Position numbers and translations under genes: made by a program
In this document: positions 41,341 through 41,430 of the stretch, piece by piece
How positions within the stretch are numbered: the stretch's first letter is position 1
Layout: the number at the start of each line of letters is the position of its first letter
Assembly (NCBI GenBank): GCA_963763775.1
Contig: CAVXPZ010000003.1
Span: forward strand, 256,001-320,000
Length of the DNA: 64,000 nt
Source of the DNA: an uncultured Chloroflexia bacterium
GTDB lineage: Bacteria; Chloroflexota; Limnocylindria; Limnocylindrales; CSP1-4
Direction: 5' to 3'
The notes under the pieces: model-generated
What the model was told of the DNA's origin: nothing
The model's input: only the letters and a program-made list of their open reading frames with translations
The model's database searches: none

Positions 41341-41430
41341 GTGAAGGCTAGGATTGTGCGAGTCCTCGTCGCGCTCTCGAGCGTGGCGATGATCGCACTC
41401 GCAGGTGGAGCTTCCCTGAGGGGCTTCTAG
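41341..41430 (+). CDS. 29-aa signal-peptide-like precursor MKARIVRVLVALSSVAMIALAGGASLRGF
   Basis: Basic N-region, hydrophobic core, LAGG, short tail ASLRGF; lies directly upstream of the HD-GYP gene. Confidence 0.75.
   Translation: MKARIVRVLVALSSVAMIALAGGASLRGF

Follow-up and report, generated by a model that had tools for sequence, protein, structure and literature searches.

Small membrane proteins encoded behind cyclic di-GMP (c-di-GMP) riboswitches have been known since 2026, from one Firmicute, Clostridioides difficile, in which class I c-di-GMP riboswitches control the 58-aa membrane-associated CD1980.2/CD2309 family (PMC13724677). The CD1980.2 family is reported to form a predicted four-helix bundle and to be repressed by c-di-GMP, multicopy and without homologues outside C. 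difficile (PMC13724677). Here, we report a 29-codon open reading frame (ORF), named sORF2, in a 64,000-nucleotide stretch of DNA (hereafter the window) from an uncultured Chloroflexia bacterium of the class Limnocylindria (Chloroflexota; contig CAVXPZ010000003.1, positions 256,001 to 320,000). It lies 117 nt downstream of a class II c-di-GMP (c-di-GMP-II) riboswitch, follows a first mini-ORF (sORF1) and ends 76 bases before the start of a gene for an HD-GYP-type phosphodiesterase. This module is conserved across Limnocylindria.

The likeness to CD1980.2 and CD2309 consists in small hydrophobic proteins encoded right behind premature-termination c-di-GMP riboswitches, several of them unannotated or called 'hypothetical' (PMC13724677). 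sORF2 differs from CD1980.2 in its 29 aa with one span, in its class II, predicted-ON riboswitch, in being single-copy and in belonging to Chloroflexota. It further differs in following a mini-ORF and preceding an HD-GYP gene. sORF2 is analogous to the CD1980.2 family, not a member of it.

The sORF2 frame and its coding signature

sORF2 reads GTG AAG GCT ... GGC TTC TAG, that is, 29 codons from a GTG start plus a TAG stop, and occurs once in the window's genome. The first-pass annotation of the window, made from the letters alone, had described an ORF with a basic N-end, a hydrophobic core, AGG, ASLRGF and a stop, all of which we confirmed at the same position on the forward strand. Taken alone, sORF2 is no more than chance would give, with 86 ORFs of 20 aa or longer found over positions 38000–45000 in a local background of about 62–73% G+C. 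Comparison with relatives raises it above chance, because the same frame, length and tail, together with a coding substitution pattern, are found there at the orthologous position.

We searched 101 genomes for the riboswitch family RF01786 and retrieved matches in 46, comprising the window's own and 45 of the 60 others of its genus; none was found in the 40 genomes of a sister family, which measure about 1.0–1.4 Mb where listed. Thirty loci were selected by the riboswitch match alone and are therefore unbiased as to the peptide. All 30 share the layout of aptamer, terminator, Shine–Dalgarno site, sORF1, sORF2 and HD-GYP gene, and all 30 carry the sORF2 frame and tail, with ASLRGF as the tail in 27 and an intact 29-codon ORF in 20. 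Among the 20 intact sequences, all of them distinct, pairs differed on average by 0.236 at the first codon position, 0.080 at the second and 0.532 at the third. The NG86 method gave a non-synonymous divergence (dN) of 0.157 and a synonymous divergence (dS) of 1.355, a ratio of 0.116 (135 out of 190 pairs usable). The block A21-G-G-A-S-L-R-G-F29 is invariant in these sequences, with 2–5 codons used per residue.

This substitution pattern is the signature expected of a translated gene under purifying selection. Judged by it, sORF2 is a true protein-coding gene, and its 29-residue product is a micropeptide with the form of a signal peptide or of a single membrane-spanning helix. The codon-level conservation that the first-pass annotation had named as a check is present, orthologues retaining the ORF, and its description of a signal peptide plus a few residues was borne out as that of a real short gene. 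A chance ORF, or a conserved non-coding RNA whose RNA structure or DNA sites account for the conservation with no peptide made, could draw on the abundance of short ORFs in G+C-rich DNA (the 86 of at least 20 aa in 7 kb) and on TAGTAC at the sORF2 stop being part of a conserved GTAC-containing element. We consider it highly improbable, given the three-base periodicity of the substitutions with the dN/dS ratio above, the invariant residues written by up to five different codons, and a start codon and exact length kept in 20/30 riboswitch-selected loci, in 11/11 loci of other genera and in 76/80 loci of a species-level scan (the latter two described below).

In composition, the peptide matches a Sec signal peptide, or else a single membrane span with the N-end inside and the C-end outside. 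The best 19-residue Kyte–Doolittle mean lies between 1.66 and 2.41 in 31/31 aligned sequences; the median number of K/R residues is three on the N side (K2, R4 and R7 in the window) and one on the C side, and the 31 sequences together hold two acidic residues. They show the Sec-type layout of a basic n-region, a hydrophobic h-region and small residues at −3 and −1 (ALA/GG; GGA/S). Within the genus, L12 to F29 are nearly fixed and residues 1–11 variable. Across the window's own family (f1), the hydrophobic core varies and ALAGGA[ST]L[KR]GF is retained. Between f1 and a second family of the same class (f3), ALAGGAS is retained and the last four residues differ (LRGF or LKGF in f1; FRGW, LRLW or LRIW in f3).

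Several expectations of the first-pass annotation can be read against this pattern. The GG/GA site and terminal aromatic residue that it foresaw are kept in the orthologues, as F in f1 and W in f3. Its variable core holds for the hydrophobic stretch within f1 but not for ALAGGAS and the tail, which are nearly invariant. The resemblance to a lipobox did not hold up: LAGG stands in place of LAGC, the lipobox [LVI][ASTVI][GAS]C of a lipoprotein signal peptide is not found, and Cys is absent from all 31 aligned sequences. Neither did the double-glycine leader. Such leaders are amphipathic and acidic, with the motif LSxxELxxIxGG and a longer mature peptide after it. In sORF2, G22 and G23 are invariant, but the leader is hydrophobic and nearly without acidic residues, only six residues follow the GG, and no C39-ABC transporter was found among the neighbours (regulator, HD-GYP, DUF5317, MFS, PCMT and PIG-L). 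A type I toxin, suggested by the size and hydrophobicity, was set aside on the fixed place in a sense operon; an antisense element was not looked for.

We built a profile from the 20 intact peptides and ran it over 401 genomes sampled across the phylum. It matched 18 of them: the window's own, 11 of the 23 others in f1 (seven genera) and, weakly, six in f3; no match was found in the other approximately 80 families sampled among these 401 Chloroflexota genomes. The 11 matches in other f1 genera are all intact 29-codon ORFs, several with a GGAGG-type Shine–Dalgarno site of their own. Four of the six weak f3 matches were inspected. In three of these (L043, L045 and L046) the module is complete, although L043 has its frame broken by one base; the f3 peptides have 31–32 aa and end in ALAGGASFRGW, ALAGGASLRLW or ALAGGASLRIW. 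The fourth, L044, is not a member: it belongs to a long ORF, as its signal peptide, and counts among the nearest non-family matches of the profile. The other two, L047 and L048, are 489-aa frames.

A species-level scan (one genome per species) with the pattern AGGASL[RK]GF returned 116 relatives, of which 80 loci were kept; their tail is the selection criterion and not evidence of invariance. They comprise 76 intact 29-codon ORFs, and in 79 the aptamer motif lies upstream at a distance of 330 nt or less. Nearly all are labelled as Chloroflexota, "Chloroflexia" or Candidatus Limnocylindria/Limnocylindrales metagenome-assembled genomes (MAGs), and the odd submitter labels are two "Thermomicrobiales", two "Anaerolineaceae" and one "Sulfomarinibacteraceae". 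ALAGGAS and the tail are almost invariant in f1, over more than 100 species-level genomes, with the 80 kept loci pattern-selected by the tail. In the riboswitch-bearing genome G023, about 100 bases of N right after the sORF1 start (L130, G023:C15) account for the lack of an sORF2 match.

Searches of NCBIfam gave no family for any of 20 members at E ≤1, and Pfam gave only noise for the peptide (best E 0.041, PSII_Ycf12, 2/20 members). Six of ten orthologous peptides are present in public protein collections, named only "hypothetical protein". In the ESM Atlas, the 32-aa f3 orthologue L045 retrieved unnamed "hypothetical protein" clusters of 30–32 aa, with recognition under the guide value. A literature search found nothing on c-di-GMP in Limnocylindria nor on this module. 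The peptide family is unnamed and unstudied.

Leader, first mini-cistron, spacer and gene neighbourhood

Table 1. Features of the sORF2 locus, in positions of the window.
Feature	Position	Strand	Remarks
Regulator	37631..41074	+	1147 aa; P-loop (GYGKTT) N-part, TPR-like middle, winged-helix and BTAD-like C-end
Promoter-like site	41071..41100	+	TTGACC-N18-TATAGT; 10/12 matches, 0.2 expected in shuffles
Inverted repeat or 5' hairpin	41108..41133	+	CTTCGTAGTAC-TCCG-GTACTAGGAAG; between the −10 box and the aptamer
c-di-GMP-II riboswitch aptamer (RF01786)	41141..41224	+	61.4 bits against a gathering score of 53.5; model positions 1–84 of 84
Terminator-like hairpin	41212..41244	+	8 pairs, loop of 7; stem 41212–41234, then TTTTCG; 5' arm within the aptamer closing helix
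Shine–Dalgarno site AAGGAGG	41261..41267	+	7 nt before the sORF1 GTG; conserved in the 30 riboswitch-selected loci
sORF1	41275..41328	+	17 aa, VTAESIKGWLPESIKGW, then stop; VTAESIKGW-LP-ESIKGW; GTG start
sORF2	41341..41430	+	29 aa, (M)KARIVRVLVALSSVAMIALAGGASLRGF, then stop; fixed frame and length, dN/dS about 0.12, invariant tail
Long hairpin	41430..41498	+	About 66–70 nt; from the last base of the sORF2 stop to about 9 nt before the HD-GYP start
Promoter-like site	41444..41473	+	TTACC (41444–41448)-N19-TACAGT (41468–41473); inside the long hairpin
HD-GYP-type phosphodiesterase	41507..42910	+	467 aa, membrane; HD_5 E 4e-38; multi-pass N-terminal domain
DUF5317 membrane protein	42989..43560	+	E 5.5e-25; 3' end uncertain
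Major facilitator superfamily (MFS) transporter	43857..44933	+	MFS_1/MFS_3; Pfam match from model position 42, start probably upstream

RF01786 is the sole Rfam family above its gathering score in the window, and its aptamer is the only copy in the 3.30-Mb, four-contig genome; among 14 control genomes, it matched only Deinococcus radiodurans. Because terminator and aptamer overlap by 13 nt (Table 1), ligand binding would block the terminator, and the riboswitch is predicted to be an ON switch. Of 112 related loci that extend far enough upstream, 108 have the promoter-like site in the form TTGAC[CT]-N17-19-TAnAnT. At the position of the inverted repeat, 111 of the 112 have GTAC-N3-6-GTAC, which may act as a hairpin at the RNA 5' end or as an operator bound by a protein. 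The GTAC motif is found again at the sORF2 stop (TAGTACG) and, in many of the relatives, immediately ahead of the HD-GYP Shine–Dalgarno site.

Nine sub-threshold RF01786 matches of 35–50 bits were also found in relatives (L131–L139, in G005, G016, G010, G044, G026, G030, G014 and G029). Their aptamer-like core looks different (for example, ...GGCGATGACGCGCGG...GAGCCACTGGCGAGACCG...), and they sit directly before ordinary secreted or membrane-protein genes, without a mini-ORF. They may represent a variant aptamer class in this lineage. Since ordinary ORFs follow them directly, the idea that sORF1 is a generic part of the riboswitch was rejected.

The sORF1 of the window is a tandem duplication of the usual 9–10 aa form, x-P-E-x-x-(x)-K-G-W and stop; L003 and L102 have a similar duplication. 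A strict pattern recognised the mini-ORF in 79 of 121 related loci; its length was 10 aa in 53 of them, 9 aa in 24 and 17 aa in two. P3-E4 are characteristic, and the C-end has an invariant K at −3, G, A or P at −2 and W, F or Y at −1. The middle varies at all codon positions (0.37, 0.40 and 0.44), a weak coding signature; the exchange of W, F and Y requires two base changes, and frame and length are retained. sORF2 begins 12 bases past sORF1 in the window, and the sORF1 stop overlaps a weak Shine–Dalgarno site of sORF2 (9–14 nt gap). Both mini-ORFs end in a basic, a small and an aromatic residue before the stop, and the ESIKGW repeat resembles the ASLRGF tail, in the shared form S-x-[KR]-G-[WF]. 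This likeness is compatible with a shared receptor or a shared effect on termination.

The spacer between sORF2 and the HD-GYP gene folds in the window into a hairpin with a minimum free energy (MFE) of −42.8 kcal/mol, at z −4.1 against dinucleotide shuffles. Single-sequence folds of the spacers of 64 relatives gave a mean z of −3.41, with 73% below −2. The helix opens no more than 12 nt from the sORF2 stop in 64/64 and at the third base of the stop in 40/64. Its median span is 66 nt. The closing end lies a median of 9.5 nt ahead of the HD-GYP start, on the border of the Shine–Dalgarno site; of the 41 sequences in which this site could be scored, 25 leave it unpaired in the MFE fold. In some genera (L038 and L041), stop codon and hairpin are offset. 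Because the hairpin joins the sORF2 stop to the HD-GYP ribosome-binding site, translational coupling of the two genes is suggested. The promoter-like site inside the hairpin recurs as TAnAnT in 77 of 82 spacers, with a −35-like pentamer 17–19 nt upstream in 59 of the 82, and as TAGACT in the second family. If this site is a real internal promoter of HD-GYP, the riboswitch would act most directly on the two mini-ORFs.

Metatranscriptome contigs of at least 80% likeness, from four runs of three studies, span aptamer, sORF1 and sORF2; DNA may occur in RNA libraries. They cover positions 41175–41398 (X12 record 4), 41154–41398 (X15 record 10), 41257–41445 (X18 record 21) and, with one difference, 41296–41475 (X9 record 32). 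Contig ends near 41445–41475 run on into the hairpins of relatives and thus reflect divergence, not transcript ends. Such contigs yield no ends, strand or level, and their depth, highest over the aptamer, cannot rank the parts. The four RNA libraries had no contigs on 40800–41003 or 41616–42300, a lack of cover that is uninformative. The contigs lend weak support to transcription in close and distant relatives. Across sequencing runs, the share of sampled words was at most 0.17 in any run, and no habitat is indicated.

The genes around the module keep their order. Searches with tblastn placed the regulator upstream, in the same orientation, in 70 of the 72 loci whose flank sufficed, and it is also present in four other f1 genera and two f3 genomes; the end of its gene, with the stop codon, runs into the −35 box of the promoter that follows. 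Its domain matches all fall just under the Pfam cut-offs (Trans_reg_C E 1.3e-4, BTAD E 2.8e-4, TPR_2 E 3.4e-4), and no domain hit matched the RNPP or Rgg family. Among related loci whose flank sufficed, tblastn placed the HD-GYP gene downstream, in the same orientation, in 77/77 and DUF5317 in 75/75. The N-terminal domain of the HD-GYP protein bears a weak likeness to MASE9 (E 0.006, 17.0 bits against a cut-off of 24.3). The order regulator, HD-GYP, DUF5317 and MFS is kept in 6/6 extended loci (the same four f1 genera and two f3 genomes), PCMT is present in all six, and PIG-L in the four f1 genera.

Single-base breaks of the HD-GYP frame within its first 100–300 codons were seen at L003, L004, L006, L007, L011, L017, L018, L023 and L025–L030. 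Such breaks, in many few-contig assemblies of the genus, suggest indel errors, which is relevant to pseudogene calls in these MAGs. At 42989–44933 in the window, the 3' end of DUF5317 and the start of the MFS gene are both uncertain: the reading frame of DUF5317 has no stop for 645 codons and runs past the MFS gene, which is encoded in a different frame, owing to an indel or as a chance open frame in G+C-rich DNA. Upstream of the regulator, on the reverse strand (36080–36619), a 179-aa protein has two treble-clef zinc fingers (zf_Tbcl E 9.6e-21, zf_Tbcl_2 E 9.2e-16); it is nearby in 3/6 extended loci, in varying orientation.

Possible functions of the peptide

The reading we favour, tentatively and at somewhat less than an even chance, is that sORF2 encodes a c-di-GMP-induced single-pass micropeptide that stays in the membrane, works with HD-GYP or DUF5317, is coupled in translation to the HD-GYP gene and takes part in negative feedback. 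At high c-di-GMP, the aptamer would hold the 5' arm of the terminator and transcription would read through. sORF1 and sORF2 would then be translated from the strong Shine–Dalgarno site, and ribosomes ending sORF2 would reach one foot of the hairpin, the other foot of which touches the HD-GYP Shine–Dalgarno site, giving coupled translation. The peptide would have its three basic N-end residues inside, a 19-residue hydrophobic span rich in small residues, and the R-G-F tail outside. It would remain in the membrane and act on the multi-pass HD-GYP protein or DUF5317, as KdpF, MgrB and CydX do on their partners, so that riboswitch, peptide and HD-GYP together could form a negative-feedback unit for c-di-GMP.

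We infer the ON logic, the coupling, the membrane retention and the partner of sORF2, and we favour this reading because of a general rule for small proteins, the gene context and the C. difficile precedent. Most characterised bacterial proteins below 50 aa cross the membrane once and partner a larger membrane protein whose gene lies close by. sORF2 has this layout: fewer than 50 aa, one hydrophobic span and a position 76 bases before a multi-pass HD-GYP gene. A complex prediction for sORF2 (31 rows) with residues 1–245 of HD-GYP (44 rows) scored 0.01 against a mark of 0.32, with a calibration made without partners below 30 residues, and does not bear on binding either way.

Several observations weigh against a membrane micropeptide coupled to the HD-GYP gene. 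The span V8–L26, which includes SS and GG, is near the lower length limit of stable helices and would match a Sec signal peptide cut at ALA/GG or GGA/S just as well. The tail and ALAGGAS are the most conserved parts, for which a processing site or an arrest motif would do as well as a partner-binding end. The hairpin claim is based on single-sequence folds, its covariation being a reading of individual folds; RNAalifold on a MAFFT alignment of the 64 spacers gave no consensus structure, the alignment being poor in the 3' arm. The promoter inside the hairpin suggests that HD-GYP can be transcribed without the sORFs, which weakens an obligatory coupling. Since the conserved gene order reaches the unrelated PCMT and PIG-L, synteny alone is weak proof of a functional link. 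Finally, the sORF2 frame is broken in 10 of the 30 riboswitch-selected loci. Seven of these ten also have a broken HD-GYP frame, as do 5–7 of the 20 loci with an intact sORF2, which suggests indel noise in few-contig assemblies. Three loci, L012 and L021 (frameshift after ATG) and L020 (in-frame TAG), are not covered by this argument.

Two alternatives would have the tail leave the cell. sORF2 could be a Sec-type precursor cut after ALA or GGA, releasing GGASLRGF or SLRGF as an exported cue that is sensed by the HD-GYP membrane domain or, after uptake, by the TPR-containing regulator, with the MFS protein perhaps in transport. We regard this as unlikely, although much of the peptide's shape speaks for it: the canonical n-h-c layout has small residues at −1 and −3, the invariant block coincides with the putative cleavage region and tail, with the h-region differing between genera, and the last four residues change between families while ALAGGAS stays. 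In Firmicutes, very short precursors have their C-terminal 5–8 residues as the signal (Phr, iCF10/iAD1, SHP/XIP), and the sORF2 locus has a P-loop/TPR-like/BTAD regulator directly upstream (70/72) and an MFS gene two genes downstream (6/6). However, peptide pheromones usually diversify along with their receptors, whereas the riboswitch-selected loci show an essentially invariant sORF2 tail (27 of 30). Among the immediate neighbours, the only genes examined for them, there was no peptidase, Opp-type importer or ABC exporter, and the TPR match of the regulator is under the Pfam cut-off. A fuller version, in which a c-di-GMP-gated signal joins a cytoplasmic sORF1 peptide (S-x-K-G-W) to an exported S-L-R-G-F tail, released after ALAGGA, seems to us very doubtful, as does the reading of that tail by the HD-GYP sensor domain or, after uptake, by the upstream regulator. 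If true, the c-di-GMP state of one cell would be broadcast to its neighbours or compared with theirs, and the system would be the first of its kind in Chloroflexota as well as the first peptide pheromone under riboswitch control. Any release of the peptide would link a second messenger to a peptide signal.

The mini-ORFs could instead act in cis, as leader or arrest peptides whose C-ends, [KR]-G-[WF] and stop, delay termination, perhaps when a small molecule is sensed. A ribosome paused at the hairpin foot would then set HD-GYP translation or Rho sensitivity, as with TnaC, SpeFL and ErmCL. This too is improbable in our judgement, despite conservation that climbs towards the C-end near the peptidyl-transferase centre (residues 1–11 variable, 21–29 invariant), a length fixed at 29 codons in f1 and an ending shared by both mini-ORFs, basic-Gly-aromatic-stop. 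The overlap of the sORF1 stop with the weak sORF2 Shine–Dalgarno site fits it as well, as does the sORF2 stop being the first element of a hairpin that abuts the HD-GYP Shine–Dalgarno site. Yet it leaves the basic N-end and the Kyte–Doolittle mean of at least 1.66, kept in 31/31 across families, unexplained. A 29-residue chain would lie wholly inside the ribosome at the stop, a geometry that should exclude a force sensor of the SecM/MifM type. The offset of stop and hairpin in L038 and L041 also speaks against it, and with the HD-GYP Shine–Dalgarno site unpaired in 25/41 MFE folds, opening of the hairpin is not needed for initiation. The membrane-micropeptide and cis-acting readings can both hold together.

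Each reading would matter in its own way. As a subunit or regulator of HD-GYP, the peptide would add a layer to c-di-GMP homeostasis, from riboswitch through micropeptide to phosphodiesterase; as an arrest peptide, it would hold a new stalling motif. Proteins below 30 residues are often missed or left "hypothetical". The one described here is preserved almost to the letter throughout a class of Chloroflexota that abound in soil and fresh water but are uncultured, and it has direct links to both a c-di-GMP riboswitch and an enzyme that degrades c-di-GMP. All parts are short enough for synthesis and testing in a surrogate host, despite the natural hosts being uncultured.

Relation to known systems

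The riboswitch itself resembles RF01786 in its full-length match above the gathering score and in the terminator that overlaps the closing helix. It differs in its Limnocylindria host and in what follows, the first cistrons being two mini-ORFs and not an ordinary gene. KdpF, CydX, MgrB and AcrZ share with sORF2 a length below 50 aa, one span, a basic inside end and a place near the gene of a membrane partner. They have no sequence relation to it, and the putative partner of sORF2 is a c-di-GMP phosphodiesterase, an enzyme for which, to our knowledge and from a literature search that found none, no such micro-protein subunit is known.

Phr, iCF10/iAD1 and SHP/XIP also have precursors barely longer than a signal peptide and an adjacent gene for a repeat-domain regulator. 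These systems belong to Firmicutes, with RNPP/Rgg receptors, Opp import and variation between strains, whereas sORF2 belongs to Chloroflexota, has an invariant tail and shows no Opp, Eep or PptAB among its immediate neighbours. TnaC (24 aa), SpeFL (34 aa) and ErmCL (19 aa) are alike in size, in the conservation of the C-end and in a stop placed by an mRNA structure that governs the downstream gene; unlike sORF2, they are not signal-peptide-like.

Set beside the C. difficile proteins, what appears new here is an apparently unrelated and much smaller peptide, paired with a mini-ORF and a phosphodiesterase and, by the comparison of genomes, found class-wide. It would extend the link between c-di-GMP riboswitches and small membrane proteins to another phylum and another riboswitch class, with the opposite predicted sign.

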